Virus record (IMG/VR): IMGVR_UViG_3300045988_119718
Coordinates: 64,001-128,000 of that record
From: a virus
Strand: one strand, 5' to 3'
DNA length: 64,000 nt
The notes under the pieces are model-generated. The model made no database searches, was not told where the DNA came from, and worked only from the letters and a program-made list of their open reading frames with translations. This document shows, in pieces, positions 2,408 through 56,750 of the stretch (the first letter of the stretch is position 1; each line of letters starts with the position of its first letter). The translations under genes were made by a program, and so were the position numbers.

Positions 2408-2413
2408 AATGAA

Positions 2414-24500: not shown

Positions 24501-26119
24501 ATATAGATTCTTATGTAGGTAAAGTAGCTATAGATGGTTCTGATAATATCATTATTACAGAAGATAATAAGAATAATCTTATTGGTAAAACAGTTAAGTT
24601 TAATACTAGTGGTTTATTTATTGATAATACTGTAAATAATTTTGATAGTATTATAATGAGTAGAGATATTTATAATAAGTATGATTATAAAAACAATACT
24701 TATGTAATGCTATTTAAACGTGGTATGCTGCCAGAATGGTATAATAAAATTCAATATACCAATGATAAATTCTATTTCACTGATATACCTAGAGCTGATT
24801 ATAGGACTATTTATATGGAAGAGTATGAAAAGCAATATATCCAAGTAATGGGTAAAGAAGGGGAATTTTACAATGGTAAAACTACTAGATCGTTTAAAGT
24901 AGAAGATGGGACTGATTTTGAAACTGGTTATGAAATATCAGTAATTGCAGATTATGGCTATACAGCTGGTAAGGTTAAAGAATCCCCTGGTATTGTAACT
25001 AGTGATTCTTGGATTAGAGCTTATGAACCAGAAATAAACTTCTATACTGTAACTGTAGTTACCTCTCCTCATCAACATATTAAAGCCACTATTATCAGCA
25101 ATAAAGAAGGATATGATTTATCTACTTTGGAAAAATTATCATATACTGATACTACATTTAGAGTTCCTTACAATACTACAGTTAATTTTGAATTAACTGC
25201 TGATAAAGGATATACAGCTGGAGAATTAAATTATAACTCTATTGTTGTAACTAAAGATACTACTATTAAAGCTGCAAGAGAAGCAGACACTAATGATTAT
25301 ACTATTAGAACAGCTAATTTGTATAAAGATATTATCGATATAAGTATAGAATATAAAGATAAAGAATATAAAGATGTTACTGTTAATGCTAAATATGCTG
25401 ATACATTTAAGGTCATTATAAAAACTCTTAACGATAGATATGTATACAATGGAATAGAATATAATGAAGATACTATGCACAAAAATGATGATGGTTCATA
25501 TACTTTATTAGAAGATACTGTGATATCTGTAAAACAACCATTAGAAAACGCTCATAGATTCTATATCTACGATAACTCTGATATGGATATAACCGCTAAA
25601 AATTATGGCATTGATAATAAACTGATATCTTCTTGCAGTATAAATGAAGATATGAAAATTATTAATAGAGATATAATTAAAGTCAATGTTAAGCCAAATA
25701 GTAATTATAATGCGGCTATTCCATTATTAATAGAAGGTACTCCTAAAGCATTAGTAAAGCCTGATAACGAAAATAACCAAGCTGAATTAAATTACACTAT
25801 TACTGCTGGAGAAACAGATATTAGTATTAGAGCATCTGATACTAAGATTAGATACTTTACTATTAATATTCCTAATAAAGATAATCAGACTATTACGATT
25901 AAATATGTAAACCCAGTTGATAGTGGTACTTATACTACTATTAAGTCCGTAAGTGTACCATATGGTACTATATATACAATTACAGTAACTCCGAATGAAG
26001 GATATAATGCTGGTACAGCTAATCCTTCTAGTGGTACAGTAACCAGTACTGTAAATATCAATGTAACAGATGCTACTAAGATTAGATATAAAGTTTACCT
26101 TAATGCTGGCAATGGTTAA
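21521..26119 (+). CDS. giant virion adhesin / fibre protein (1532 aa) with LamG/ConA-like, CBM5/12-like repeats and C-terminal Ig-like modules
   Basis: RBS AGGAG. LamG-like segment (aa ~40-225) ends ...GYIDDFVLVKGLS. Five tandem ~45-aa repeats W.KP..Y..GD.V.YNGK.Y......P....W (aa ~292-530). C-terminal repeated modules end in GYTAG / GYNAG. Confidence 0.7.
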   Translation: MDYETLINLKFKRTEGSVDLTKSKWSSVVINEANYREETVDYSSAGRFDNGEAAYLDGEFSVINKITGKNLSLDLNADEFTFALWVNCDFTKMNMKQYLLCGNNQIKNSNNSIYLQPDKFKTNMSIVLVSSTGTKIEIPFIENSGLILTGRWVWLRLTKSNDNKINFYINNELIGTSSVITSSFKLIFNNNETCIGKGYDADYLYYPHFKGYIDDFVLVKGLSYNKAKVPSTYFLNEIDPSLLEDAANVWDEKEREFSQYDSITNAIEWKRFNTKEEIDKREQALIPYMLTPIWKQCDINLPTWIKPVLTNPYRINDKVIYNINQIYNNTIDFNTEYPDAANGWKLIHNTLDDIKEWEKPNKYYNYMDKVLYNKRVYQSQVNYNTELPAAWMVLTALTNSEKEELDDDIYKWNKEIEYAFKDRVKYNNKYYISIMNNNLGYIPGDTTYWKEVGGGTSFITDWVKPTTYKNGDIVSYNGKYYHSNIDYNILTPGNHHVEWTEITYWEQPKYKNVYVDGDKVFYKGKTYICNLAKDSSGNYKYHEYSIVAPDKYVNKKYYKALYHIIPEGGNYYDPRDVESIFWQEIPKTQITDYSLYKEWVRGNVYNTGDLVVATDYDWKQTFISEGFFQNKQFTIDRDDTTIKIKLYDAWDNHYLSNDKDRIYFKKNYLEAFNLIEVDGYILMINNKFIKWTDIDIIRSDRFVTLSIKKPSSFVVKDVVLIRLPCKVIYSETGYMPDNGIKLFGFDTNGNFGSDINIYAVNNRLRELVYTDTKFDNIFIDTNLDHKITRSNLFVFDEDGKFITRDNYTISSANIFTYIPIDTDKKYTLYCIWDDTENSNEDNLALIPNDIRVRQYLRNYNTNTNMDNDYPVDLQQLNKEFDYSVVRHTSDKRYDDNISNSMNGIFNYNKNKFDSVYEEVRPVNIEEYSEAYMNSLKRNIRITIDETNLPQLLHSYIVEGTDLIELCDENKNKYIGKTVIMKLRQYLSVTLTKSNIDSYVGKVAIDGSDNIIITEDNKNNLIGKTVKFNTSGLFIDNTVNNFDSIIMSRDIYNKYDYKNNTYVMLFKRGMLPEWYNKIQYTNDKFYFTDIPRADYRTIYMEEYEKQYIQVMGKEGEFYNGKTTRSFKVEDGTDFETGYEISVIADYGYTAGKVKESPGIVTSDSWIRAYEPEINFYTVTVVTSPHQHIKATIISNKEGYDLSTLEKLSYTDTTFRVPYNTTVNFELTADKGYTAGELNYNSIVVTKDTTIKAAREADTNDYTIRTANLYKDIIDISIEYKDKEYKDVTVNAKYADTFKVIIKTLNDRYVYNGIEYNEDTMHKNDDGSYTLLEDTVISVKQPLENAHRFYIYDNSDMDITAKNYGIDNKLISSCSINEDMKIINRDIIKVNVKPNSNYNAAIPLLIEGTPKALVKPDNENNQAELNYTITAGETDISIRASDTKIRYFTINIPNKDNQTITIKYVNPVDSGTYTTIKSVSVPYGTIYTITVTPNEGYNAGTANPSSGTVTSTVNINVTDATKIRYKVYLNAGNG

Positions 26120-33849: not shown

Positions 33850-35838
33850 ATGGCTAAAAAAGATCTATATTATAATAATAATGAATCTACTAAACAAATT
33901 ATAACAGAAGTAGAATTAGATAACCATAATACTTCTGATAATGCTCATAAAGAAAAATTTGATAAATATACATTACATACTCCTACTGGAATATGGGATG
34001 CAGTATATCAATTAGGCCCAAATTATAGATTTACTGATCAATCTACTAAAGGATTTGCTAAGTTAGGATTATTTGCATCAGTATATGATACTAAAGACGT
34101 ATTTGAATATCAACCTTCTCAGTTTGGCACTTTATTAAATTTACCTACTACTATAAAAGATAGTAATTTTATTACAGTTACCCAGTTATGGTTTGACCAA
34201 TCTGGGGATTTATTTATTAGAACTGGTACTGTAAATAATCCTATTAATAAACTTCAATTTACTAAAGTAACTTTAATGACTGATGTATTTAATAAATATG
34301 GCAATGAATTCCCAGCTACTAATTTAGTTCCTGGTATGTTATTTTATAGGGCTGATGAAAATAAATTATATGTATATGTGCCTAGTGATAGTAACTCTAA
34401 CTGGAAGATGATTTATGATTTAAATAAAGATGCTAATATAGCAGATGGCTTGTCTCATGCTTGGTATAAATTAGACAATTCTACTAATGATACCAGTATA
34501 CCTAAACTAGCAGAGTCTGAAAACATGAATACGTATATTAAACCTGGTGTATACTCATGCATTTCTGGGCAGATAGCAGGTACTTTAGTAAATAAACCAT
34601 CTGGGGCAAATAGTAACTTTAGATTAATTGTAGAAGAAAATACTCCTGGATATGGAGTACAAAAAGTATTTACTAATAATCCTTGTAAAATTTTTATAAG
34701 AGGCTTTAATACTACTAATAATAAAACTACATTTACAGATTGGAAAACTTTAGTAAATAGCACAGATACAATTTTAAATGCAGAAACAGCAACTAGAGAT
34801 AGTGCTGGTAATGTAATAAAAGATACTTATGTTAAGAAATCTGGAGATATCATGACTGGTGGTATTATCTTTAGTAAATCTGCCACTGGTAATAACTATG
34901 TAGGCCCTGGTGAAGGGGATGTAAGTGATGCTGTAGTTGCTAATCAATCTAATTTAGCAATTAATGGATGGCAGACAGTTGGTGTTAGAAAATCTAGCAG
35001 TGACCCATATACAATTAGTATGAATACTAGAACTGGTGATATCCATACTAAAGGTAGCATCAAAGGAGATAGCACCGCTACATTTACTGGTGCTGTAACT
35101 GCACCTACATTTAATGGTCATGCATCTGAAGCTAGTAAAGTATTAGCAACCAATATTTCTCAAGATACAGTATTGATGGAATCTATCCAAACTGATGGGG
35201 ATGGCTCCAGAATTGTCATAACAGGCGTTGGAGACCATCATGATGGTTGTCATTTAAAATTTCAATTAAACAACTCCGATCCTGGTAATATTGGTAGTCA
35301 AGCAAGCTTCTACCTTGAGCAGTACCATGATAATTATCATACATTAGAAAGTAGGGCTACTCTATTAGATTATGCACATAATACGTCTTTCCCAGGGGTA
35401 TTAACCGCAGCTAGAGTAGTAAATGCTCAGTATAATGACTATGCAGAATTCTTTGAACGTGGCGAAGAAACTGAAGCTGGAGATATTATAGCTTTAGATT
35501 TATCATCTGATGAAGAAAGATATGTTAAAGCTACTCCAAAGAATAGAGTTATAGTAGGAATTCACTCTGATGAATATGCCCATATCATTGGTGGTGAAAA
35601 AGATAAAACCTTAGAAGAGAACTTAAAGAATTTCATTCCTGTTGCATTAGCAGGTCGTGTACATGTTAAAGTATCTGGTGTAGTATATAAAGGGGATAGA
35701 ATTGTTATTAGTAATGGTATGCCTGGTATTGGTATAGCTCTTACTAATAATTCTACTTCTAATAAACAAGTAATTGGTATAGCATTAGAGAATAAATATA
35801 ATCTTGGTATAGGTAAGATTAGATTATTGCTGAAGTGA
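33850..35838 (+). CDS. tail fibre protein (662 aa)
   Basis: RBS AAGGAGGA. The C-terminal ~110 aa (VVNAQYNDYAEFFERGEETEAGDIIALDL...HSDEYAHIIGG...IPVALAGRVHVKV) is shared with ORF 61345-62418. Confidence 0.6.
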   Translation: MAKKDLYYNNNESTKQIITEVELDNHNTSDNAHKEKFDKYTLHTPTGIWDAVYQLGPNYRFTDQSTKGFAKLGLFASVYDTKDVFEYQPSQFGTLLNLPTTIKDSNFITVTQLWFDQSGDLFIRTGTVNNPINKLQFTKVTLMTDVFNKYGNEFPATNLVPGMLFYRADENKLYVYVPSDSNSNWKMIYDLNKDANIADGLSHAWYKLDNSTNDTSIPKLAESENMNTYIKPGVYSCISGQIAGTLVNKPSGANSNFRLIVEENTPGYGVQKVFTNNPCKIFIRGFNTTNNKTTFTDWKTLVNSTDTILNAETATRDSAGNVIKDTYVKKSGDIMTGGIIFSKSATGNNYVGPGEGDVSDAVVANQSNLAINGWQTVGVRKSSSDPYTISMNTRTGDIHTKGSIKGDSTATFTGAVTAPTFNGHASEASKVLATNISQDTVLMESIQTDGDGSRIVITGVGDHHDGCHLKFQLNNSDPGNIGSQASFYLEQYHDNYHTLESRATLLDYAHNTSFPGVLTAARVVNAQYNDYAEFFERGEETEAGDIIALDLSSDEERYVKATPKNRVIVGIHSDEYAHIIGGEKDKTLEENLKNFIPVALAGRVHVKVSGVVYKGDRIVISNGMPGIGIALTNNSTSNKQVIGIALENKYNLGIGKIRLLLK

Positions 35839-40940: not shown

Positions 40941-43220
40941 TTATCTTTCACCTTTAAAATTTTTAAAATTCATGTTTTTAGCTATTTGCTTCTTAGCTAT
41001 TTCCTCTGGGTCTTCTCCAAAGTTAGTAAACACTGAGTCTGGTATTTTAAACTTGTTAGCTTTATTAGTGGATATTAATTGTTCCTCTGGAATCTGAGAA
41101 TATTCAGCATATGCTTTTCTTACTGCTTTATTTTGAATCATATCCATAAGCATTTGTTCTTCTTGATTTCTTTGTTTTTTCATAAACTCAGAGAACATAG
41201 TACCCATACCAATCTTTAAAGTTTTTAAACACTCATCTACTTCTTTTCTAGTACTGTTTTCATCTTCTATAGGAATTTTAAACTCTTCTACTATTTCAGT
41301 GTACTTTTGTTCTAGGTCTTTACCTATATTATCATCAACAGAATCTTCTGTTTTAATTACACCTTTATCAATATTAAAGTTTTCTTTTAAATACTTACCT
41401 TCATACCAAACATATAATGCCATTAAATATGAGAATACTAAATCATCGTGAGAATTATCAGAGTGTTCTACTTTACCATTTTTCTTAACTACCATTTTAG
41501 ATAGTTCATCATACATAGTAGGAGAAGGCATTTTATCTTTATGCCTTTCCATTCTTTCTCTAAGTATTTCTATAAGTAAATCACGAGAACCTTTAGATGA
41601 ATCTAATCCATATACTTTAGTTTTTCTCTTTACTCTAATTGGTCTTCCTAATTCATCTGAAGTTTCTTCCATTACTCTTTCTTTGATTTCATAATAAAGA
41701 TTATCTTTAATTCCACCTGGTTCTTTTAATTTAGCAATAAGAGATGCTCCAAATCCTCCATTACGCTCGATATTTACTACCGCATTAGGCATCATTGCTT
41801 TAACCATCCAGATTAAAGTTCTTGCTAAATCAGGTATAGTCATATAGTTGCATTTTAAACCAGCGATAAATTGTGTAGTTTTAGAATCTATTACAGATAT
41901 TGCAGTATAGTCTCGTCTATATCCACCAGATACATCGACACCTATTATAGGAGGATTTATAGGTAACCCTGTAATAGATAATGGTATAGTATTATATATT
42001 TTGAATGGGTATTTATTTAATATTAATACTTCTCTTATAGGCTCATGTATCATACCTCTAAGAGTTTCTAAATCATCTTGACTAAATGGAGAATTTTCTG
42101 GAGTATCTATCCATTCGAGTAAAATTTCTCGACGTATATCTACCATCTTCCACATCATGTTTTTACATTGATCATAGAACCATTTTTCTCCCAATCCAAG
42201 TTGTTTATAAGAATACTTTATATATACAAATATGGAATTCATATTATTATTTATGATATCCATAATTTGTTCGTAAGTTAAGTCATACCATCGTTCATTA
42301 AATGGTGTAGCATTTTGTATCATATCATACGCAAATTGACCTTCAAAAGTAGACAATCTGCCTGGGGTAGTAGTTATAGTAATACCATATGGTACATTAG
42401 CTCTTTTAGCATTAATAAATGCTTTATTTAATGCTGGCATAGAGTTTACATAGATAGTAGAGTTAAATGCCGTGAATGCCCATTCGTCAGCCCACCACAT
42501 AGTAATGGTTTGACCTCTTAATAGGTTAGCTGCTGCTGTTTCATTTCTAGCACCAGGAACAGTTCTAATGATATTATGGTTTACTGGATGCTGTATAGTC
42601 TGTACAGTAGAAGGTAATTTCTTCTTTTTACCATTTATCACAGAGAACTCTTGAGATAATTGTAACCATGATGGTAATAAATCTCTAACAGCTTTAAATG
42701 ATTCCAAGTTTCGCTTAGCATCTTGATTCTGCTTATTCATAAATGTAATATTAGAATTAGCAGAAGCAAAGTTATATACATAAAGATATCTTACTATCGC
42801 TGCCATGGTTTTACCAACCTGACGAGGCATTTCAAAAAATAAATTCATATTATACATAGAGCAAAAATTAAAGGCTAAGTTGCCTCTATTAAGCTCATAT
42901 CTAACACCTCTAGGGTTACCATTAGCAGTTACTCTAACTACTTCTCTTAAGAAATACCAATAGTTTCTCTGTACTTCTCTATATATCTTCATTTTCATTT
43001 CCAAAGATAAGCTAGGATCATATGGATCTACACCAGCTAAATCTGGGTCAAATAAAGACAGCATAAATTTATTATTCTTAATACCAATACTCTTCAAATA
43101 ATAATGCATATTAATAAATGACTTATTAGCTGTAGACATTTGGTAATATATCTTTTGGGGAGCATATTGTATTTGCCTAGGTTGTTGCTGAGCAATTAAA
43201 TTAGATATTAAATCCGCCAA
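40941..43220 (-). CDS. terL: terminase large subunit (T4 gp17-like ATPase + nuclease)
   Basis: Walker A MPRQVGKT (cf. gp17 SRQLGKT), Walker B MWWADEWAF, and C-terminal RNaseH-like nuclease region IIGVDVSGGYRRDYTAISVID. Confidence 0.7.
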   Translation of the reverse strand: MADLISNLIAQQQPRQIQYAPQKIYYQMSTANKSFINMHYYLKSIGIKNNKFMLSLFDPDLAGVDPYDPSLSLEMKMKIYREVQRNYWYFLREVVRVTANGNPRGVRYELNRGNLAFNFCSMYNMNLFFEMPRQVGKTMAAIVRYLYVYNFASANSNITFMNKQNQDAKRNLESFKAVRDLLPSWLQLSQEFSVINGKKKKLPSTVQTIQHPVNHNIIRTVPGARNETAAANLLRGQTITMWWADEWAFTAFNSTIYVNSMPALNKAFINAKRANVPYGITITTTPGRLSTFEGQFAYDMIQNATPFNERWYDLTYEQIMDIINNNMNSIFVYIKYSYKQLGLGEKWFYDQCKNMMWKMVDIRREILLEWIDTPENSPFSQDDLETLRGMIHEPIREVLILNKYPFKIYNTIPLSITGLPINPPIIGVDVSGGYRRDYTAISVIDSKTTQFIAGLKCNYMTIPDLARTLIWMVKAMMPNAVVNIERNGGFGASLIAKLKEPGGIKDNLYYEIKERVMEETSDELGRPIRVKRKTKVYGLDSSKGSRDLLIEILRERMERHKDKMPSPTMYDELSKMVVKKNGKVEHSDNSHDDLVFSYLMALYVWYEGKYLKENFNIDKGVIKTEDSVDDNIGKDLEQKYTEIVEEFKIPIEDENSTRKEVDECLKTLKIGMGTMFSEFMKKQRNQEEQMLMDMIQNKAVRKAYAEYSQIPEEQLISTNKANKFKIPDSVFTNFGEDPEEIAKKQIAKNMNFKNFKGER

Positions 43221-44605: not shown

Positions 44606-45097
44606 TTATTCTAAAACACCATTATAGCAATACTCTTTAATACCCTTAATATAGTAATCATCCTTCACATCTAAAACTAAGAATCCATATTCTTTAAATA
44701 TTTTATCGTAGATTTCAAAGTATTTGCATTTACTAGATAAAGTAACTAAAGGCATATCTACCTTTAATTCAGTAATAGCCTTATCTATTAAAGCTCTTAT
44801 AATATCATCATACTCATTTTTGAACTTAGTATTTACCCAAATAGTGCAAATCTTTTTTTCACCTTGATAGTCTTTAATGATTAGACATCCTTTTTTAATA
44901 GTTTTTGTATCATCCATTAAAAATATAATTTTTCTTTTTCTTGAATTAACTTCAGGAATTACTTTCTCAAATAACCATTTTCTACTTTTAGGATATAATG
45001 ATACTAAAGAATTTATCATTTCTTTAGGCAAAATTTTATCTTTACCTCTTTCAGTAATTTTAATAAGTTCAACAAACAGTGTATTCTTATACTTCAT
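44606..45097 (-). CDS. hypothetical protein (163 aa)
   Basis: ORF. Confidence 0.45.
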   Translation of the reverse strand: MKYKNTLFVELIKITERGKDKILPKEMINSLVSLYPKSRKWLFEKVIPEVNSRKRKIIFLMDDTKTIKKGCLIIKDYQGEKKICTIWVNTKFKNEYDDIIRALIDKAITELKVDMPLVTLSSKCKYFEIYDKIFKEYGFLVLDVKDDYYIKGIKEYCYNGVLE

Positions 45098-46698
45098 CTC
45101 ATTCTACTCTCTCTTTCATTTTTAGTTTGTAATGCTGCCTGATAGTTTTCTTCTAGTACAGAATCATCGATGATATACTTTTCATTATCATCATCCCATA
45201 CAAACTTACTAAAATATGTTTCTTCTACAGAAGTAGCATATTTTTCAAATATAGATTTTTTGGATTCATAGCATCCTTTGCATGCATCAAATCCAATATC
45301 TACAAATTCCATATAAGTAGTATCACTATCTCTAGTTCTACCTAACGATTGTCTGGCTAATACTTTAGACTTAAATGGTTCAGCTAATACTACAGTCATT
45401 TTAAGACCTTTAATATCAATAGCTGCACCACAAGATTTAGTAGTAGATAAAATAATCATCTTATCTAATTGCTGTTCTTTGATAAACTTATTCTTCTCGA
45501 TAGAAGTATAAATACCAATATTATTACTCATATATGGATAATTAGCTACAATATAATCATAGACTATTTTAATAGCAGCATTAGTACCAATATATATTAA
45601 AGTCTTACTATTGGTACTAATAATGATTTCCATTAAGATAGTAATGATTTTAAACAAGTAGTCTTTACCTTGTTTAGTAGTAATAAAACTACAGTATTTG
45701 TTTCTATCGAATCCATATCTATTAGTACACCATCTCTGTTGACCTGGTGTAGGATGAGAGTTAAATAATACAGATACATATCTTGTATGAGGATCTGTTT
45801 CTTCATTAAATAAATCTATCTTAGGCATACATCTAAAAGTTTCTTGATATACAGCATCTTCTCCTCTATCAGATCTAGCAGGAGTAGCAGTTAGATATAA
45901 AGTCTTTCTAGTATTAGTATAGAAATCAGTCTTCCAAATATCATCAAACAATAAATGAGCTTCATCATAAATCTTTAAACCAACTCTAAGTTTCTTAAAT
46001 AATTCTGTAATCTTAGTCCAGTCTTCAGATTTACCATTTTCAGTAGCATATGCATGAATAGTTTGATGAGATGCTAAAAAGTATTTAATCTTAGAAATAT
46101 CTACCATACCATTTAAAATCATAGCAATACTAGTTCTACCAGTAATAATATAAATTTCAGATGGTTTGGTATCAGTATATTCTAAAATTCTATCTTTCCA
46201 CTGTTTAATCCACCCAGTAGAAGAAGTAATCATAATACTTCTCATACCAAAGTATGCAGATGAAAATATAGTTACAAAGGTTTTACCTGCACCAGTATTA
46301 AGATTAACTCCTAACTGAGTGAATCTAGCAGTATCAGCATATTCATCTTTACCTAAAATAAACTTAATAGCTTTAAGCTGTGTTTCATTTCTTGGTTGGT
46401 ATTTAAGATTAATCTGTAATCCATCATCATATGGATCCCATGATGTATGAAAGTTAGGAGCAGTATTAAGTTTATCCGCTAACCAAGCAATATCCATTGA
46501 TCTAGGCAAAGTAAGAATCTTATTCTTAGCATCATACCACATAGCTTTATTAGTATACTGATTTAAAGTTTTATCAAATACACTAAACATTTCTTGTACT
46601 TCAGGGCAATCATTTACTTCATAACCAATAAGTTGTATACAAGTATTATAAACCTCTATAGATACATTATGTGATAAAAACATAACTTCTCCTTTCAC
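45094..46698 (-). CDS. SF2 DEAD/DEAH-box helicase (UvsW-like)
   Basis: Motif I NTGAGKTFV, motif II IYDEAHLL, and helicase C-terminal domain features. Confidence 0.65.
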   Translation of the reverse strand: MKGEVMFLSHNVSIEVYNTCIQLIGYEVNDCPEVQEMFSVFDKTLNQYTNKAMWYDAKNKILTLPRSMDIAWLADKLNTAPNFHTSWDPYDDGLQINLKYQPRNETQLKAIKFILGKDEYADTARFTQLGVNLNTGAGKTFVTIFSSAYFGMRSIMITSSTGWIKQWKDRILEYTDTKPSEIYIITGRTSIAMILNGMVDISKIKYFLASHQTIHAYATENGKSEDWTKITELFKKLRVGLKIYDEAHLLFDDIWKTDFYTNTRKTLYLTATPARSDRGEDAVYQETFRCMPKIDLFNEETDPHTRYVSVLFNSHPTPGQQRWCTNRYGFDRNKYCSFITTKQGKDYLFKIITILMEIIISTNSKTLIYIGTNAAIKIVYDYIVANYPYMSNNIGIYTSIEKNKFIKEQQLDKMIILSTTKSCGAAIDIKGLKMTVVLAEPFKSKVLARQSLGRTRDSDTTYMEFVDIGFDACKGCYESKKSIFEKYATSVEETYFSKFVWDDDNEKYIIDDSVLEENYQAALQTKNERESRMR

Positions 46699-46979: not shown

Positions 46980-49139
46980 TTAAGACTTAAAAATCGGTGT
47001 AATGAATTCTGGTTTCTTAGGCGCTTTTACTTCATTACTTAAAAATTCTTGTGGTTGTACCATAAAGAACATATCCATTCTAGATGATTCATCCTTAGCA
47101 TAAGTAATTGGATTAGTTAATGTGGATTTAAGATTCTTATATAAGAGACTAATAATAACTGATGGATTATTAGTAAGCGACTGATCTAATGAGAGAATCT
47201 GATATTCTTCATTATCATGCTCCCATTCTGGTAATTTCAATTTAGAATGCACACTTCTAATCTGATTCATAAGCATGCATTCTAGATGAACAGATTGAAT
47301 GGTAATCTTACCTTTAATAATCAGATTAATAAATTTCTTTAATAAAGAATCTTTATCCAAACCAATCAATTCATCTTTCTTGTTAATGAGACTTTCAATA
47401 TCTTTCAAGTTCTTATCGATATCGTTATTAATAATCTGGATATAGAATAATGCATTATCATTCAAAGTATTAATGAGATCTTCAATATCGATATGATACA
47501 TTCTATCACTAGCTAATGATAATCTTTTAAGATAATCAATAAAGTCTTCAGAGAAAAACATTTCAGTCATATTCTCAGAATGAATATCATATTTCTTACC
47601 ATTCGTATCTTCAAATACAAATGAAGTAATATAATTTGTAAACTGAGAAGAATCTGAGAAGGATGATTCCATATTATCTTCTTCATCAGAATCAGATTCT
47701 GTATTCTCCGTATTATCCATAATACTATTTGGATCGATAATAATATGACCAGCTTCAATATTATCATTGACATAGATCATATTTACATTATCTACATAGA
47801 AGAATTTATTAAAATTATCATTCCAATTAATCTTTTCAATTACAGTTTCAAGAAGATGTTTAGCTGACAACTGTTTCTGTGTAGTCTGTGAAGTCAACTG
47901 TTCTACCGCAAACTTACCTACTTTAAGATTAGAATTAATATAAGCAAGTTCTCCATAACATCTCTTACAAATACCATGACCATGTGCAGCGGATGCACAA
48001 GTCATTGGAGAGAAAAGATAAATTGTTTTACCAATAAGAAATGTATCAGTAGGATGAATTAAATAATCAATTCCATCTGGATTGGTTCTATAATATCTTC
48101 CTGTAAGCATACTAAGGATTTTGCTATTATCGATAGTAATCACAATAGGATTATGAGTATTACACTTATAATCCAAATCAGTGTTTAATACAGTATCAAT
48201 ATTATTAATACCCATGATACGAGCAAAGTTACCAGAAGATGATGTATTGTGCTTAACAATAATCTGTGCAACTCTAGAAGATGCAGAGTCTACAAACTGG
48301 TCTGCTACATGCTGTAAACCGCCCATAAGATAAGATCTATCAATGATATGAGGATGTACACCACCAGTACCATCTGGTTTAGAACCAATATGAATCGCAA
48401 ATTCTTTATACTGTCTAGGGCTAACACCTTCTCCAGTTTCAAAAGAATTCTTTAAACAATGATCGTATCCTAAAACAGATTTAGAATTCTTGATAATTTC
48501 GATGCTTCTATCTGCTTTATCCATACCAATATCTTTTACATCTTCGATACTTTTATCAATAAGTGATGTATGAACAAGATTATTGAATTCTGGAATATTA
48601 TTCATCAAATCGATAGTATCTTTAAGATTAATAGTATTAGCCAAGAAGAATGAAAAAGAATCTACATCAGAAAACTTAGATAAGGTATCATCGATAATAT
48701 TATTGAGAGAAATAGTGATTCTTTTCACATCCTGTTTATAGATATGACTAAACCTCTCTACAATAATAGGAATATATCTATCAAAATATTTTTTAATGCA
48801 TTTTCTATTAATTACTTTAGGACAGAATAGTGCTCTTCCATCCAAGGTAATACCACTCTTAACAACCAAATACCACATAATAATATTAAAATACAAATCG
48901 AAGATGGTTAAATCAACTACATCATTATTACCAAAATCTACAGTAATAATGAATCGTTTAATCTCTTCGGTTTCAATATTATCTTTAAGAATATTTAAGA
49001 TACCATCATAATATTCTTGCCAATTAGAACTAGTAATATCACTAGTTCTTAAATAGAATTTCCCAGTTCTAACTAAGTCTGCAAACATATAATAGTTTTG
49101 ATAGTTATTTAACATCTTACTCCTCCTTTTAAACAACAA
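46980..49139 (-). CDS. large hypothetical protein (719 aa) with a Cys/His zinc-binding cluster
   Basis: CASAAHGHGICKRCYGE cluster and an acidic SDSDEEDN patch; no family recognised. Confidence 0.5.
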   Translation of the reverse strand: MLFKRRSKMLNNYQNYYMFADLVRTGKFYLRTSDITSSNWQEYYDGILNILKDNIETEEIKRFIITVDFGNNDVVDLTIFDLYFNIIMWYLVVKSGITLDGRALFCPKVINRKCIKKYFDRYIPIIVERFSHIYKQDVKRITISLNNIIDDTLSKFSDVDSFSFFLANTINLKDTIDLMNNIPEFNNLVHTSLIDKSIEDVKDIGMDKADRSIEIIKNSKSVLGYDHCLKNSFETGEGVSPRQYKEFAIHIGSKPDGTGGVHPHIIDRSYLMGGLQHVADQFVDSASSRVAQIIVKHNTSSSGNFARIMGINNIDTVLNTDLDYKCNTHNPIVITIDNSKILSMLTGRYYRTNPDGIDYLIHPTDTFLIGKTIYLFSPMTCASAAHGHGICKRCYGELAYINSNLKVGKFAVEQLTSQTTQKQLSAKHLLETVIEKINWNDNFNKFFYVDNVNMIYVNDNIEAGHIIIDPNSIMDNTENTESDSDEEDNMESSFSDSSQFTNYITSFVFEDTNGKKYDIHSENMTEMFFSEDFIDYLKRLSLASDRMYHIDIEDLINTLNDNALFYIQIINNDIDKNLKDIESLINKKDELIGLDKDSLLKKFINLIIKGKITIQSVHLECMLMNQIRSVHSKLKLPEWEHDNEEYQILSLDQSLTNNPSVIISLLYKNLKSTLTNPITYAKDESSRMDMFFMVQPQEFLSNEVKAPKKPEFITPIFKS

Positions 49140-49368: not shown

Positions 49369-49788
49369 TTAATTGTTACCAAAAGTCGTTTTGGTATAAT
49401 AACGCGGATTAGTTTTAAGAATAGCTTTCTGTGCTTTAACAACATCACGCTTAACATTGTTACCATAACGCTTAACGATGTTAGCAATAGCAAGTTTCTT
49501 AAGCATATGAGCTTTCTTAAGTCTCTTCCAGTCAGAAGAATTCTGTTCTTTAGCTTTCTGCATAGCTGCAAGAGTAATACGTCTATTATAATCATCCTGT
49601 TTAGAAAGACGAACAATGGTTCTACGACCAATAGCTTTGGCTTCTACGAGAGCATTTACCTCATCAGATTCAAGGTACTGCTTACGTTCTTCATCGTCCA
49701 TATGGTTGACATAATCGACAAAAAAGGATTCAAATAAAGCGGTAGCATCTTGAATGCCAGCTTCTTGAGTATCATCAATATATGACAC
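49369..49788 (-). CDS. hypothetical basic protein (139 aa)
   Basis: ORF. The overlapping ORF 49227-49631 in another frame is treated as spurious. Confidence 0.45.
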   Translation of the reverse strand: MSYIDDTQEAGIQDATALFESFFVDYVNHMDDEERKQYLESDEVNALVEAKAIGRRTIVRLSKQDDYNRRITLAAMQKAKEQNSSDWKRLKKAHMLKKLAIANIVKRYGNNVKRDVVKAQKAILKTNPRYYTKTTFGNN

Positions 49789-49937: not shown

Positions 49938-52115
49938 ATGAACGAAAATTATGCAAAGATATTTAAAAAGTACAAAGATTCTATGAAAAGAAATATGAAA
50001 ATTTTAATGCCAGAATTAGGAGATAGTGAACTGGATAGAGCTATTGATTGGAGTATTAATAGAAGAATTAAAGACCATCAAATAGAGATTGATGATAACT
50101 ATCATAATCAAAGAACTAATATTAACCTAATCAAGTTGTATGAATATATTCAAGAGCGTAAACCAATATTAACATCTTACGGATGTTTATTTACACAACA
50201 TGGAGAAAGACCTAATCCATTATATGAAATGATTCAAGAATTTGCAGATAGACGAAACAACTTTAAAAAGAAGATGCTTCAATATCCAAAAGGGTCTGAA
50301 GAATATAATAGATATAATTTAAATCAGCTAGTTGCCAAAGTAGATACAAACGCAATTTATGGTTGTCTTGGAGCAGCATCTAGTGTATTCTATAATGTAT
50401 ATGTAGCTACATCTATTACCAGACAAGGTAGAAGTAGTATTACAGCATCCATTATGCTATTTGAATCATTCTTAGCCAATAATATTAAATTTGGTTCTTT
50501 AAATCAAATCATTGCTTTTATTGACCATGTACTACAGGAGAAACCAAATAGAAAATTTAGTGATAATGATATCTTAGATAATAGTGTATCTAAAGAATCT
50601 GTATTTGCAAAGCTTATGCTTAGTTGTGGATATAGATGGTTGCCTAATGATGAAGATATGGAAATCATTTGGAGAATGGTACAAAGATTAGATCAAGAAG
50701 ATTTAAATAGATTATATTATAAAAATAATCTATATAGCTTCTTTGATAATGAAGTACCGTTAGAAATAGTAACCGACATTCTAAAAGAATTAGATAGTCC
50801 ATTTATTGATCCTAATAATCCGCCTTCTAATATTCAAGATAAATTAGATGTATTAGTAGATATAGTAAAAGAATACGTTTATTATAGATACCAAATTATC
50901 GATAAGATTGAACGGGTAGAAACATTAATTAGACAAGTAGACTTAACTACTGATACTGATTCATGCATTATTACTCTTAATCCATGGTATACCTTTATTG
51001 CAGATAAAGTCAAAAATGAAGATATGAAAATTAAGCATTTTGATATTGATGCAGTAAAACTAATGGAAAAAGAAAATCTTAATGAAGCTGGAGATATTTT
51101 AAAGAAAGATGATAGCGAATTTATTTATGATTTTAAAAATGATGAAATTATTAAAAGAAAGAGAATGAGAAATCCATTAATGGTTATTCCAGAAGATAGT
51201 CTTAGACATTCTATTATTAATATCTTAGCATATGTAATTGGTAAATTGCTTAGAGATTACTTTGATAGAATTTCTATCATGAATAATGTAACTAATGAAG
51301 CTCATCCATTCTGTTTAATGAATATGAAAAATGAATTTTTATTTATGAAAATGCTTCTTAGTGATGCTAAGAAGCATTATGCTACCTTAGTAGAAGTACA
51401 GGAAGGTCATGTTATTCCAAATGACCCATCTAAACAATTAGACATTAAAGGGTTGGAAATGGATAAGTCTGTAATTCCTAAATCTACTAAAGAAGTATTA
51501 AGTAAGATTCTATATGAAGATATTCTAAAGTCTAAAAATATTGATCAGCTTAAAATCATTAATAAATTAGCAGTATTGGAAAAACAGATTAAAGAAGCCA
51601 TTGTTAATGGTAGTACAGAATACTTTAAACCAATGAAAGTAAAAAGTATTAGAAGTTACAAAAATCCTATGTCTACTCAGCAAGTTAAAGGAAGTATTAT
51701 ATATGATCTTCTTAGAGATAAAAATGAACCATATATAAACTTAGATGAGCAATGCCCAGTACTTGTGGTAAAGACTAAGATTAATAAAAGTATACTAGAA
51801 AGTAGTAGATTTAAAGATGAATACCCAGATAAATATAATCTCTTAATTAAAGCATTTTATGATAATAATAGCATAGTCTTTAAAGTCAGAGATCAAGAAT
51901 ATTTATTTAACTTCTTTAAAGCTACTACACCTAATAATGCTAGAGAAATAACTAGTGTAGCTATTCCATATACTATCCCTACACCAAAATGGCTAATTGA
52001 ATTTATTGATTATGATTCTATTATTAAAGAAAACATAGGAGCATTCCCATTAGAAAGTATTGGTATCACAAAGTTAGATACTAATAGTGCATATAGTGGA
52101 ATCATTCAGTTATAA
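49938..52115 (+). CDS. nucleic-acid polymerase palm/thumb fragment (family B DNA polymerase-like, motifs B and C only)
   Basis: LVAKVDTNAIYGCLGAASS resembles the K..NS.YG motif B. DLTTDTDSCII resembles motif C DTDS. No motif A or exonuclease domain lies upstream of it in this ORF. Confidence 0.4.
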   Translation: MNENYAKIFKKYKDSMKRNMKILMPELGDSELDRAIDWSINRRIKDHQIEIDDNYHNQRTNINLIKLYEYIQERKPILTSYGCLFTQHGERPNPLYEMIQEFADRRNNFKKKMLQYPKGSEEYNRYNLNQLVAKVDTNAIYGCLGAASSVFYNVYVATSITRQGRSSITASIMLFESFLANNIKFGSLNQIIAFIDHVLQEKPNRKFSDNDILDNSVSKESVFAKLMLSCGYRWLPNDEDMEIIWRMVQRLDQEDLNRLYYKNNLYSFFDNEVPLEIVTDILKELDSPFIDPNNPPSNIQDKLDVLVDIVKEYVYYRYQIIDKIERVETLIRQVDLTTDTDSCIITLNPWYTFIADKVKNEDMKIKHFDIDAVKLMEKENLNEAGDILKKDDSEFIYDFKNDEIIKRKRMRNPLMVIPEDSLRHSIINILAYVIGKLLRDYFDRISIMNNVTNEAHPFCLMNMKNEFLFMKMLLSDAKKHYATLVEVQEGHVIPNDPSKQLDIKGLEMDKSVIPKSTKEVLSKILYEDILKSKNIDQLKIINKLAVLEKQIKEAIVNGSTEYFKPMKVKSIRSYKNPMSTQQVKGSIIYDLLRDKNEPYINLDEQCPVLVVKTKINKSILESSRFKDEYPDKYNLLIKAFYDNNSIVFKVRDQEYLFNFFKATTPNNAREITSVAIPYTIPTPKWLIEFIDYDSIIKENIGAFPLESIGITKLDTNSAYSGIIQL

Positions 52116-52130
52116 TTAAGGAGGATTAAA

Positions 52131-52499
52131 ATGGTTATTTGTAAACAACAGAATGAGAAAAAAGAAAGGTTAATTGAGTTATTCAATACATCTGCTGAAA
52201 AAGCAAGGAAAGCTAAAGTTCCAGTCACTACAATTACTTTAGGTGGTAAATATAATTGTAAGGTTTTCGGATTTAGCTTAAAAGATAAATATTTTCAAAC
52301 ACATTTCATTGGAGTATGTGCAGATGACCATTGCATCTATTTTATAAGTGGTTCACTGAGTAGCGAGTTAGCAATTAAAAGCCAACTTAATAAAAATGAG
52401 TGGAAAGAAGTAATACAACGCATTATGTTTGAAGCGTTTATAAATGATAAATTAATCAACGCATTTGATAGTACGCCTACAACTGAGTTTAATATGTAA
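52131..52499 (+). CDS. small protein, tandem paralog A (122 aa)
   Basis: RBS AAGGAGGA. About 45% identical to the next ORF. Shared core DHCIYFI. Confidence 0.5.
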   Translation: MVICKQQNEKKERLIELFNTSAEKARKAKVPVTTITLGGKYNCKVFGFSLKDKYFQTHFIGVCADDHCIYFISGSLSSELAIKSQLNKNEWKEVIQRIMFEAFINDKLINAFDSTPTTEFNM

Positions 52500-52527: not shown

Positions 52528-52902
52528 ATGATTATTTGCAGACAGTGTGACGAGAAAAAAGAAAAATTAATTGAGTTGTTTAATGAAGCTGCTAAAAAAT
52601 CAGAGAAAACCAAGGTTCCATGTATTGTTTATCCTTTAAATAAAGGAAAATATAATCGCGAGGTTTCAGGATTTGCTTTAAAAGATACATATGGTAAAAC
52701 ACATATCATTGGAGGATGCATGGAAGACCATTGTATCTATTTTATAACTGATTTACTGGGTATTAAAAAAATAATTAAAAGTCAACTTAGTAAGAAAGAA
52801 TGGGAAACAGTGAGATATATTATTTTTAAAGCATATATGGATAAAGAAATAAACCACGCATTTGATGGTACACCTGTAACTTCCTTCTATAATAACAGAT
52901 AA
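52528..52902 (+). CDS. small protein, tandem paralog B (124 aa)
   Basis: RBS AAGGAGGA. Shares MIICRQCDEKKEKLIELFN ... EDHCIYFIT with paralog A. Confidence 0.5.
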   Translation: MIICRQCDEKKEKLIELFNEAAKKSEKTKVPCIVYPLNKGKYNREVSGFALKDTYGKTHIIGGCMEDHCIYFITDLLGIKKIIKSQLSKKEWETVRYIIFKAYMDKEINHAFDGTPVTSFYNNR

Positions 52903-55385: not shown

Positions 55386-56750
55386 TTATTTAACACTTAA
55401 ATCACCTGGTAAGTATCCACTAGCAGCTACAACTTCTGCTTCGTAGGTAGTTCCTATTGGGCAGGTAAATGTGGACGTATGGTCTGTACCACCAGATTTT
55501 TGTGGAGTATAAACGTGAATAGTCTGGTTAGCAGACTGAACAATAGTTACAGTTGCTGTAGCTACTGTTGCTGCATTATGAGATACCGTAGTATTACCAT
55601 TTACAGTACCAGACTTTGCAGAACCTGGGTTATATCCACTATCAGCGGTATAGCTAATACTATAAGTAGTTCCGTAAGGAACACTTAAAGTTTGTGAACT
55701 CTTAGTAGCTGTTGTAGTATAAGACGGTAAGGTACCACCATATGAACTATTAGTTGCTAATCTAAGATTATAAGACTGATTTGCAGTAGCCGGAACAGTT
55801 AAAGTATAGTATCTTAATGAAGCACTAGCAGATTTAGCTGGGATAGATGTAGTATTTGTTACTGTACCACTTACTGAATTAGAAGCTGTATATGTATATG
55901 CATTTGTAGCACTATTAGCCGTATAAGCTACAGAGTACGTAGTACCATAATTTACGGTATAAGATGTAGCACTAGCAGTAGCTGCTTTAGCAACTCCATC
56001 TACAGTAGCTACATAAGTCTGGTTAGTAGTTGCTCCAAATGACAAGGTAAAGGTCTTAATAGCAGCAGCTGTAGCAGCTATAGTTACAGAATCAGTAATA
56101 GTACCACTAGTAGATGTTAATGTACCGGCATTATATCCAGTATCTGGAGTTATAGTAGCAGTCCATTTATCGCCATATGTAGCAGTAAATGTAGAAGTAT
56201 GTGCTACACCATTGCATGTTACAGTAATAGTCTGATGATCTGATTGATTAATATAAAATGTAAAAGTCTGTTTAGCAGCAGCGGTACAAGATAATGTAAA
56301 GCTACCAGCTTCAATATTAGCTTGAGTAATTCTATATGGGTTAGATACAGTAGTACCATTAATAGTTGGAGAAGATGCTTTATATCCTGTAGCTGGAGTA
56401 CAAGTAATAGTTAAAGCAGTATTCATTGGTAATAAAGTACCTGTAGATACAGCAGTACCAGAAGCATTAGTGACTCTAATAGTTTGGTTAGCTACTTGAG
56501 TAATATTCATAGCAGCTTGAGTCCATTTTAATATTGCATACTTAGTAGAAGAACCATTCTTCTGAATTCTAATACCAGAAGCATTATTAGCTGTAAGAGA
56601 AGTACCTAAACCAGCATATACATTAGCACCATCTACTTCTAAATTAATAGTAGAATATCCTGCACAGTCAGCTTTAGAAGTATATAAAGCACAAGTTCCT
56701 GAAGTACCATTTGTTTTCTGATAATGAAGAGATTTAGTTATCTTACTCAT
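55386..56750 (-). CDS. Ig-like repeat protein (454 aa), Thr/Ser/Ala-rich
   Basis: Repeated modules containing GYKAS, GYNAG, GYNPG and GYLPG. The C-terminal module is near-identical to the N-terminus of ORF 33041. Confidence 0.6.
   Translation of the reverse strand: MSKITKSLHYQKTNGTSGTCALYTSKADCAGYSTINLEVDGANVYAGLGTSLTANNASGIRIQKNGSSTKYAILKWTQAAMNITQVANQTIRVTNASGTAVSTGTLLPMNTALTITCTPATGYKASSPTINGTTVSNPYRITQANIEAGSFTLSCTAAAKQTFTFYINQSDHQTITVTCNGVAHTSTFTATYGDKWTATITPDTGYNAGTLTSTSGTITDSVTIAATAAAIKTFTLSFGATTNQTYVATVDGVAKAATASATSYTVNYGTTYSVAYTANSATNAYTYTASNSVSGTVTNTTSIPAKSASASLRYYTLTVPATANQSYNLRLATNSSYGGTLPSYTTTATKSSQTLSVPYGTTYSISYTADSGYNPGSAKSGTVNGNTTVSHNAATVATATVTIVQSANQTIHVYTPQKSGGTDHTSTFTCPIGTTYEAEVVAASGYLPGDLSVK

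Follow-up and report, generated by a model that had tools for sequence, protein, structure and literature searches.

The 725-aa polymerase gene of an uncultured jumbo phage as the probable C-terminal subunit gene of a two-chain family B DNA polymerase

An open reading frame (ORF) whose 725-aa product carries family B DNA polymerase motifs B and C, while lacking both motif A and an exonuclease domain, raises the questions of whether the protein is a replicative polymerase at all and, if so, where the rest of that polymerase is encoded. The ORF lies in a window of 64,000 nt (the whole stretch of viral DNA that was analyzed) originating from a contig of 252,690 bp, which is of jumbo-phage size, has a 30% GC content and contains a multisubunit RNA polymerase gene. 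An earlier note, made from the sequence of the window, had offered a split polymerase with its N-terminal half encoded elsewhere, a divergent polymerase or a primase-polymerase as possible readings. We consider it very probable that the replicative family B DNA polymerase of this phage consists of two chains, one of them being the product of this ORF and the partner being encoded distantly.

Family assignment, motifs and predicted fold

The translation of the ORF and the location of motif B were as the earlier note had described them, and the DLTTDTDSCII stretch of motif C was indeed present, albeit one residue off the aa 336-346 that had been claimed for it (Table 1); its DTDS occupies aa 339-342. 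A KKHY tetrapeptide, which that note did not mention, can also be seen further downstream. Motifs B (KxxxN[SA]xYG), C (DTDS) and KKxY, the latter two including D339, T340, D341 and S342 of motif C, are invariant in the alignment of 122 sequences and are kept in EL and KTN4 as well, and the individual residues R106, K110, K134, N138 and G142 are conserved in the same sequences.

Profile searches assigned the protein to polymerases rather than to any non-polymerase family. Pfam PF20286 (divDNApol) was matched with an E-value of 1.5e-35 (123.1 bits vs. a cut-off of 25.7; best stretch at 424-716), PF00136 with an E-value of 1.9e-17 (profile positions 119-201, covering the pre-finger/finger segment) and PHROG 2927 “DNA polymerase” with an E-value of 1.7e-71, and 1273 cluster representatives were found at E <= 1e-30. 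The finger region (aa 65-180) had PDB profile matches to Pol alpha and poxvirus F8, and gp152 of phages AR9/PBS1 was matched by tblastn over its full length (27.5% identity across 98% of the length for AR9). Judging by these sequence matches, the polymerase resemblance of the ORF is far beyond chance.

An AlphaFold2 (AF2) model built from the 122-sequence alignment had a mean pLDDT of 90.8 and superseded an earlier AlphaFold run with 26 sequences (pTM of 0.54, uninformative Foldseek matches). Foldseek searches with the new model retrieved the AR9 polymerase A0A172JI59 from BFVD (E-value of 1.7e-43, TM 0.80/0.90, rmsd 3.0) and matched RB69/T4 gp43, the nearest solved structure, with a probability of 1.0. 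The protein is thus a member of the phiKZ/AR9-type divergent family B polymerase family and represents its C-terminal subunit, which agrees with the divergent polymerase reading of the earlier note.

Table 1. Features of the polymerase subunit gene, given in window positions.
Feature	Residues (aa)	Window positions	Strand	Basis
C-terminal (fingers-palm-thumb, “catalytic”) subunit gene of split family B DNA polymerase	725 aa	49938..52115	+	ORF, profiles, model
N-terminal “head”	1-64	49938..50129	+	AF2 secondary structure; without T4 gp43 counterpart
Pre-finger segment, two finger helices, next palm helix	65-180	50130..50477	+	hhalign, PF00136, PDB profiles
Motif B, KVDTNAIYGCLG	134-145	50337..50372	+	Sequence, conservation
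Family-specific helical insert of ~140 aa	~188-330	50499..50927	+	AF2 model
Motif C hairpin DLTTDTDSCII, catalytic D339 and D341	335-345	50940..50972	+	Sequence, conservation, AF2 strands
KKxY motif, K478 K479 H480 Y481	478-481	51369..51380	+	Sequence; hhalign to T4 gp43 700-886 begins here
Remaining palm and thumb/C-terminal domain	482-725	51381..52112	+	PF20286 stretch, hhalign

The head consists of three helices and a beta-hairpin (48-53/58-63) with an invariant Y55, as seen from the AF2 models and conservation, and the hhalign homology to T4 gp43 begins only at aa 65. The unusually long motif B to motif C spacing pointed out in the earlier note was borne out (205 aa from K134 to D339); in RB69 gp43, the spacing is ~60 aa. 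Its length is due to the family-specific insert that separates the palm helix from the strand of motif C; this insert is all-helical in the AF2 model (block-mean pLDDT of ~92-98) and precedes the motif C beta-strands modeled at 336-339 and 342-345. A long helical insert ahead of the motif C strand has been described for the family (PMC7824862).

The surroundings of the gene follow the AR9 order: RNA polymerase beta' subunit, small divergent gene, polymerase. The position of AR9 g154 is occupied by an ORF at 46980-49139 on the minus strand, which matches PHROG 3015 “RNA polymerase beta subunit”, and the upstream neighbor of the polymerase gene is conserved, divergently transcribed and AR9 g153-like.

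The N-terminal half in relatives and the search for it in this phage

Both the motif scan of the window and Pfam agree with the earlier note that motif A and an exonuclease domain are missing. No match to D..S[LMIV]Y[PG][SNA] exists in the six frames of the window and none to D-x4-[YF]P-x5-7-N in its open frames of >=100 aa, the single match to a second loose motif A pattern in the window falls inside a tail-fibre-like ORF, and no PolB exonuclease domain was detected in the 725-aa protein, for which Pfam gives only PF20286 and PF00136 and no PF03104.

In relatives, the exonuclease and motif A are found on a separate protein, which supports the split polymerase reading. These N-half partners (AR9 gp132, phage EL ORF051) are ~550-680 aa long and carry Exo I-III together with an invariant motif A, which in AR9 gp132 is FDLSSLYPSIIQAFNISPET at aa 479-498; its D, Y and P are each retained in 99/99 gp132 homologues. 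An invariant D-x4-YP-x6-N-x4-T, along with Exo I-III, is present in the phiKZ-type N-half homologues EL ORF051, KTN4_108, SPN3US_0044, Simmy50 gp290 and RSF1 ORF189. The two halves also share out the known domains between them: gp132 matches PF03104 and PF00136 positions 45-91, with the match of the 725-aa ORF to PF00136 starting from 119, and in profile comparisons, residues 111-433 of T4 gp43 are covered by the N-half (98% probability) and residues 434-591 and 700-886 by the C-half (hhalign). By these alignments, the split point of the family falls exactly at T4 gp43 residues 433/434.

At least 22 IMG/VR contigs encode a C-half that is 38-60% identical to the 725-aa ORF and have a separate N-half gene as well, including the contig of the 60%-identical relative, on which both halves (L035 and L193) are present. 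Among the N-halves inspected from those contigs, motif A was found in 8/8 and Exo I in all seven that are full-length. The distance between the two genes ranges from 1 to ~160 kb among relatives (15 kb between the genes of AR9 gp132 and gp152). Moreover, in a fused homologue of 1224 aa, P0484, the N-half motifs (Exo I at 169, motif A at 485) are followed by those of the C-half (motif B at 713, DTDS at 910, KKxY at 998). The two portions of P0484 separately match the N-half and the 725-aa ORF, and its head-equivalent segment directly follows the N-half tail. The N-half and C-half families are therefore complementary and co-occur as separate genes in relatives, with a fused form in existence. 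Such a split has already been recognized in the literature and in GenBank annotations, where phiKZ is listed with a “Split subunit DNA polymerase” (PMC5105663) and AR9 with gp152 plus the “partial catalytic domain” of gp132 (PMC5312081), and the gene described here is a further example.

The partner of this particular phage was sought by hmmsearch with profiles from both the phiKZ-type and AR9-type N-halves. Neither the window nor record positions 143,141-223,972 (81 kb) of the 252,690-bp source contig yielded it, and no N-half occurs in the 57 kb upstream or the 21 kb downstream of the 725-aa gene. Pfam and PHROG scans of the listed window ORFs of >=150 aa gave no exonuclease and no PolB N-half, no homologue of AR9 g158 (a small DnaQ exonuclease) was seen in the window, and no protein in the homology search was closer than 45% to the N-half of the nearest relative. 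An ORF at 33850-35838, which tblastn had aligned to EL ORF051 with an E-value of 0.058, was rejected as an N-half candidate, as the alignment is short and of a chance nature and the ORF adjoins a gene with tail-fibre PHROG matches. Going by the relatives, a partner gene is presumably present in this phage outside of the 81 kb searched.

Under the proposed two-chain arrangement, the 725-aa chain would supply the fingers (R106, K110 and K134/N138/Y141 of motif B), the second palm segment (D339-T-D341 of motif C, E466 and KKxY), the ~140-aa helical insert and the thumb. From the partner, in turn, would come the N-terminal domain, the exonuclease for 3'-5' proofreading (Exo I-III) and the first segment of the palm, with the aspartate of motif A and the tyrosine of the steric gate residing on that segment. 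Because the split falls at T4 gp43 433/434, the active site would span both subunits and be assembled across their interface. The additional tail of the N-half may form that interface together with the head (~64 aa) of the 725-aa protein, making the head a candidate docking element, and neither half would be expected to polymerize alone.

Alternative readings of the 725-aa protein

The first of the alternatives holds that the 725-aa protein is a self-sufficient PolB of a divergent type that lacks an exonuclease and houses the entire polymerase active site, including a degenerate motif A, the separate protein being responsible for proofreading only. Such a view is in line with publications in which the ~700-aa protein is described as the polymerase and only the exonuclease as being encoded apart (PMC3201878, PMC7824862), and two places within the chain could be proposed for the degenerate motif. 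One is the head hairpin (48-53/58-63), the [D/N]53-x-Y55 of which precedes motif B by ~80 aa, roughly at the position expected of a motif A, and has its Y55 conserved in 104/104 members. Position 53, however, is Asn in 59/104 members and the hairpin of many members is without any acidic residue, while no invariant acid exists upstream of motif B in either the 104 or the 122 homologues, position 53 being the best local candidate. Furthermore, the N-x-Y hairpin is not motif A because P0484 has a canonical motif A in addition to it. The other is D209 (equivalent to EL D229, which was put forward in 2011 as the Asp of motif A; PMC3201878). It is 98% conserved in the clade of the 725-aa protein but lies past motif B as part of the helical insert, and its conservation does not extend to the AR9-like clade. 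Neither place was retained. As the partner family, on the other hand, has a canonical invariant motif A in exact register, and homology to T4 ends at 433 in one protein and begins at 434 in the other, the self-sufficient polymerase reading has to be regarded as improbable.

It is very improbable that this phage truly has no motif A-bearing partner, in which case an active site would have to be made up of D339, D341 and E466 together with the [D/N]53-x-Y55 hairpin, or a non-homologous partner would have to step in.

Scarcely any probability can be given to the protein being a primase-polymerase or a non-replicative (repair) polymerase instead of the main replicase. It has been speculated that the polymerases of group 1 jumbo phages might act as primpols, no primase having been found there (PMC7824862), but the 725-aa protein resembles neither the archaeo-eukaryotic primases nor primases of another family in Pfam, PHROG or PDB, all of its matches are replicative PolBs, AR9 does have an annotated DNA primase (g225), and the window revealed no second DNA polymerase gene. 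In addition, the annotated DNA polymerase gp220 of the phiKZ-related, nucleus-forming Erwinia phage RAY co-localizes with replicating phage DNA (PMC10299810). Nothing in support of the primase-polymerase suggested in the earlier note was thus encountered.

Lastly, an artefact in which the N-terminal half was lost through misassembly, a frameshift or an unrecognized intron or intein might be imagined from the polymerase genes of some relatives being interrupted by mobile elements (the match in phiR1-37 spans g164 and g167, with g165 and g166 in between, and several Staphylococcus phages match the 725-aa protein in two pieces), but it is effectively refuted already by the identical protein being called on seven contigs from several samples, by more than 1000 homologues of 630-745 aa sharing its start point, and by the DNA upstream holding a conserved divergent gene as in AR9. 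An in-frame upstream extension or exon was likewise rejected: none was found, and no extension is possible because multiple in-frame stops lie immediately 5' of the ORF.

Implications and comparison with known systems

The 725-aa gene belongs to the ordinary core genes of phiKZ/AR9-like jumbo phages and can serve as a marker of the type of phage that the window stems from. The two-chain reading also bears on annotation, as papers from 2011 and 2021 assign the polymerase to the ~700-aa protein, while family-wide it is the “exonuclease” protein that carries the catalytic aspartate of motif A; any expression or active-site modeling of a phiKZ/AR9-type polymerase would thus need both genes, with P0484, the rare fused form, being a natural single-chain version.

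When compared with Bacillus phages AR9/PBS1, the 725-aa protein matches gp152 in domain content and boundaries, its gene shares the local gene order, and the AR9/PBS1 partner gp132 is a “DnaQ-like exonuclease and partial catalytic domain”. It is, however, 84 aa longer than AR9 gp152 (725 vs. 641 aa) and comes from an uncultured 252.7-kb metagenomic phage, in which the partner was not found within the 81 kb searched. The phiKZ/EL type (EL ORF021 + ORF051, KTN4_068 + KTN4_108), whose partner carries Exo I-III and motif A, belongs to PF20286 as well and likewise carries the long insert that separates motif B from motif C, and the universally conserved residues R106, K110, Q130, K134, N138, G142, D339-T-D341, K464-N-E466, K479 and Y481 are common to both. 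Yet tblastn identity to this type is ~23-27% and extends across the C-terminal ~300 aa only, the head region differs, and no homologue could be detected here for the small SH3-like gene that lies upstream in phiKZ and EL.

The T4-like Aeromonas phages 25 and 44RR (43A/43B) possess a two-polypeptide family B replicase that must reassemble, as would be expected here, and the split 43A and 43B proteins of phage 25 co-purify and are active (PMC2988022). Their cistrons, however, are adjacent, with an untranslated spacer or a homing-endonuclease gene in between (PMC2988022), whereas the 725-aa gene has no N-half next to it. With the canonical single-chain replicases (T4/RB69 gp43, Pol alpha/delta, poxvirus F8), finally, the 725-aa chain shares motifs B and C, KKxY and the architecture of its fingers and thumb; in contrast to them, it is devoid of motif A and of both the N-terminal and the exonuclease domain, and has an extra helical insert of ~140 aa before motif C and an extra head of ~64 aa.

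The window ORF and its family

The window ORF is genuine, with several in-frame stops immediately 5' of it, and the earlier note, made from the sequence without database searches, described it as carrying family B motifs B and C far apart, with neither motif A nor an exonuclease domain, all of which the ORF, motif and Pfam checks bore out. The Pfam matches were limited to PF20286, named “divergent family B DNA polymerase” (E 1.5e-35), and to positions 119-201 of the 453 in the PF00136 profile (E 1.9e-17), with no exonuclease domain, PHROG 2927 (“DNA polymerase”) matched at E 1.7e-71, and PDB sequence matches (Pol alpha, poxvirus F8, archaeal PolB) were confined to the finger/motif B region. 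The homology searches gave more than 1100 homologues at E <= 1e-5 and 1273 cluster representatives at E <= 1e-30, nearly all of these proteins being 630-745 aa long and sharing a common start point. Among cultured phages, tblastn places the Bacillus jumbo phages AR9 and PBS1 closest, their gp152 (“DNA polymerase catalytic subunit”) having 27.5% identity over 98% of the length, next come Staphylococcus, Listeria and Fusobacterium jumbo phages, and phiKZ-like phages match the C-terminal ~300 aa only.

The features that had looked odd are already covered by published descriptions of the family: the phiKZ-type PolB without an exonuclease domain was discovered by Kazlauskas and Venclovas in 2011 (PMC3201878), a distinct “PhiKZ” PolB cluster was given by Kazlauskas et al. 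in 2020 (PMC7544198), and a long helical insert ahead of the motif C strand was described by Iyer et al. (PMC7824862), for which reason the ~205 aa between motifs B and C are the family's insert. In the second AlphaFold model of the window ORF (122 sequences; mean pLDDT 90.8, pTM 0.86), aa ~188-330 are all helical (block-mean pLDDT about 92-98); the best solved-structure match of the model is RB69/T4 gp43 (probability 1.0), and superposing it on the AR9 polymerase prediction gives TM 0.80/0.90 and an rmsd of 3.0 Å. The BFVD matches to the model also included short “DNA polymerase” entries (400-480 aa) from several unrelated phages (Tenacibaculum phage pT24, Campylobacter phage F336, Ackermannviridae sp. 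and Escherichia phage JEP8), and split family B polymerases may have several independent origins.

Genome setting

The window has a GC content of 30%, and a protein identical to the window ORF product is encoded on a 252,690-bp ENA metagenome contig. Genes around the polymerase are arranged as they are in AR9, and the polymerase ORF is divergently transcribed from the neighboring small gene.

Coordinates of the features discussed (nt within the window unless a locus or aa is indicated)
Feature	Position	Strand	Remark
Window ORF	49938-52115	+	725 aa
Motif B	aa 134-145 of window ORF		KVDTNAIYGCLG
Motif C	aa 335-345 of window ORF		DLTTDTDSCII
KKHY motif	aa 478-481 of window ORF
SF2 helicase	45094-46698	-	same local order in AR9
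Non-virion RNAP beta'-like subunit	46980-49139	-	same local order in AR9
Small gene	49369-49788	-	weak similarity to AR9 g153; same local order
Small paralogues	52131-52499; 52528-52902	+	122 and 124 aa
Terminase large subunit	40941-43220	-	759 aa
NrdD	2-2413	-	892 aa; extends past left window edge (L019)
Thr/Ser/Ala-rich protein	55386-56750	-	454 aa
CBM_5_12 repeat protein	21521-26119	+	1532 aa
Phage EL ORF021	L002:2642-4741	+
Phage EL ORF051	L008:13762-15564	-
EL ORF051 motif A	D493...Y498 P499...N506...T511		exact register
P0484 motifs	aa 169; 485; 713; 910; 998		Exo I; motif A; motif B; DTDS; KKxY
N-half of IMGVR_UViG_3300007206_000003	aa 164; 282; 403; 511		Exo I; Exo II; Exo III; motif A; 660 aa

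Directly 3' of the polymerase lie two tandem paralogous genes (53% identical), both with conserved Cys/His residues (C-x2-C near the N-terminus, H...C..DHC), for which no match was found in PHROG (both searched) or Pfam (one searched). The terminase large subunit matches PHROG in two blocks (aa 22-188 and 468-603) separated by ~280 aa without a match, and has no Pfam match; as introns interrupt the AR9 terminase gene, the unmatched stretch could be an insertion domain or an intein-like element. At the left window edge, a long open frame encodes an anaerobic ribonucleotide reductase, followed on the contig by NrdG-like radical SAM, dUTPase and gyrase A-like genes. The very Thr/Ser/Ala-rich protein has repeated ~80-aa segments (“...GYxxG...T...”), matches no family, and is probably a surface or fibre protein made of repeats; the protein with carbohydrate-binding module repeats sits amid virion and tail-fibre-like genes.

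Two complementary halves

AR9 gp132 matches PF03104 (exonuclease) and PF00136 up to profile position 91 (from 45), complementary to the window ORF, whose coverage begins at 119. The profile of such N-halves aligned with T4 gp43 residues 111-433 (98% probability), spanning Exo I through motif A and ending at “...ETIRGQFKV”, and those of the C-half, to which the window ORF belongs, with residues 434-591 and 700-886; with the N-half match ending at 433 and that of the C-half beginning at 434, the break corresponds to T4 gp43 433/434. One cluster representative, P0484 (1224 aa, one ORF), is a head-to-tail fusion of an N-half (Exo I-III, motif A; 29-32% identity to N-halves) and a C-half (28% identity to the window ORF), which may be a single-chain form occurring in nature or else a product of gene calling or assembly.

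On at least 22 IMG/VR contigs, a C-half with 38-60% identity to the window ORF is accompanied by an N-half encoded as its own gene, the two lying between 1 and about 160 kb apart. Motif A was present in all eight N-halves inspected, and Exo I in all seven full-length ones, the eighth being cut at a contig end. In the close relative IMGVR_UViG_3300007206_000003 (C-half 60% identical), the N-half lies about 18 kb off. Among AR9-like phages, several N-half matches agree with C-half matches in the length of the longest contig, which suggests that both are on the same contigs. On IMGVR_UViG_3300032007_000836 (loci L089 and L159; 7,553 bp), the N-half lies only ~1 kb upstream of the C-half and in the same orientation, as opposed to 15-160 kb in the other relatives, an arrangement that could be intermediate towards the fused form.

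Using both phiKZ-type and AR9-type profiles, hmmsearch found no N-half gene in the window or in the 10 kb past each edge (record positions 143,141-223,972); judging by relatives on all sides, we infer that this phage would nonetheless have its partner. The split polymerase, one of the readings that the earlier note offered from raw sequence, proved correct for this family.

Location of motif A and comparison with known split polymerases

No DxxSLYPS-like motif exists in any frame of the whole 64-kb window; the looser pattern D-x4-[YF]P-x5-7-N had no match in open frames of at least 100 aa, and the single match to another loose pattern fell inside a tail-fibre-like ORF. Within the C-half family, no position 5' of motif B holds an invariant acid. 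The best candidate there lies where strand 48-53 ends, ahead of the invariant Y55; 59 of 104 sequences, however, have Asn at position 53, many members lack any acidic residue in this hairpin, and P0484 carries a canonical motif A as well as the N-x-Y hairpin, which is therefore not motif A. The 2011 paper (PMC3201878) put the motif A Asp on D229 of EL ORF021, but the aligned D209 of the window ORF lies after motif B, within the helical insert, and the AR9-like clade does not conserve it.

The same paper called phage EL ORF051 a “3'-5' exonuclease”. Exo I, II and III are all present in this protein and in its KTN4/phiKZ, SPN3US, Simmy50 and RSF1 counterparts, and so is, near the C-terminus, an invariant D-x4-Y-P-x6-N-x4-T in the exact register of DxxSLYPSIIxxxNxxxxT; proteins of this type occur in 291 phage records, versus 279 for the C-half. 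In AR9 gp132, motif A is FDLSSLYPSIIQAFNISPET (aa 479-498), with its D, Y and P each kept in 99/99 homologues.

The split arrangement was already known, and the window ORF adds a new member, from a metagenome, to the family: a “split subunit DNA polymerase” of phiKZ was mentioned by Thomas et al. 2016, who credited Cornelissen et al. 2012 (PMC5105663); AR9 gp152 and gp132 are listed as the two polymerase proteins, both continuously expressed, by Lavysh et al. 2017 (PMC5312081); and gene 43 is split in the T4-like Aeromonas phages 25 and 44RR, its products in phage 25 co-purifying and being active (PMC2988022). A useful point is where the motif A Asp is: the 2011 and 2021 (PMC7824862) accounts regard the ~700-aa protein as the polymerase, with the exonuclease alone encoded apart, whereas throughout the family this residue, placed in 2011 within the ~700-aa protein, is on its partner.
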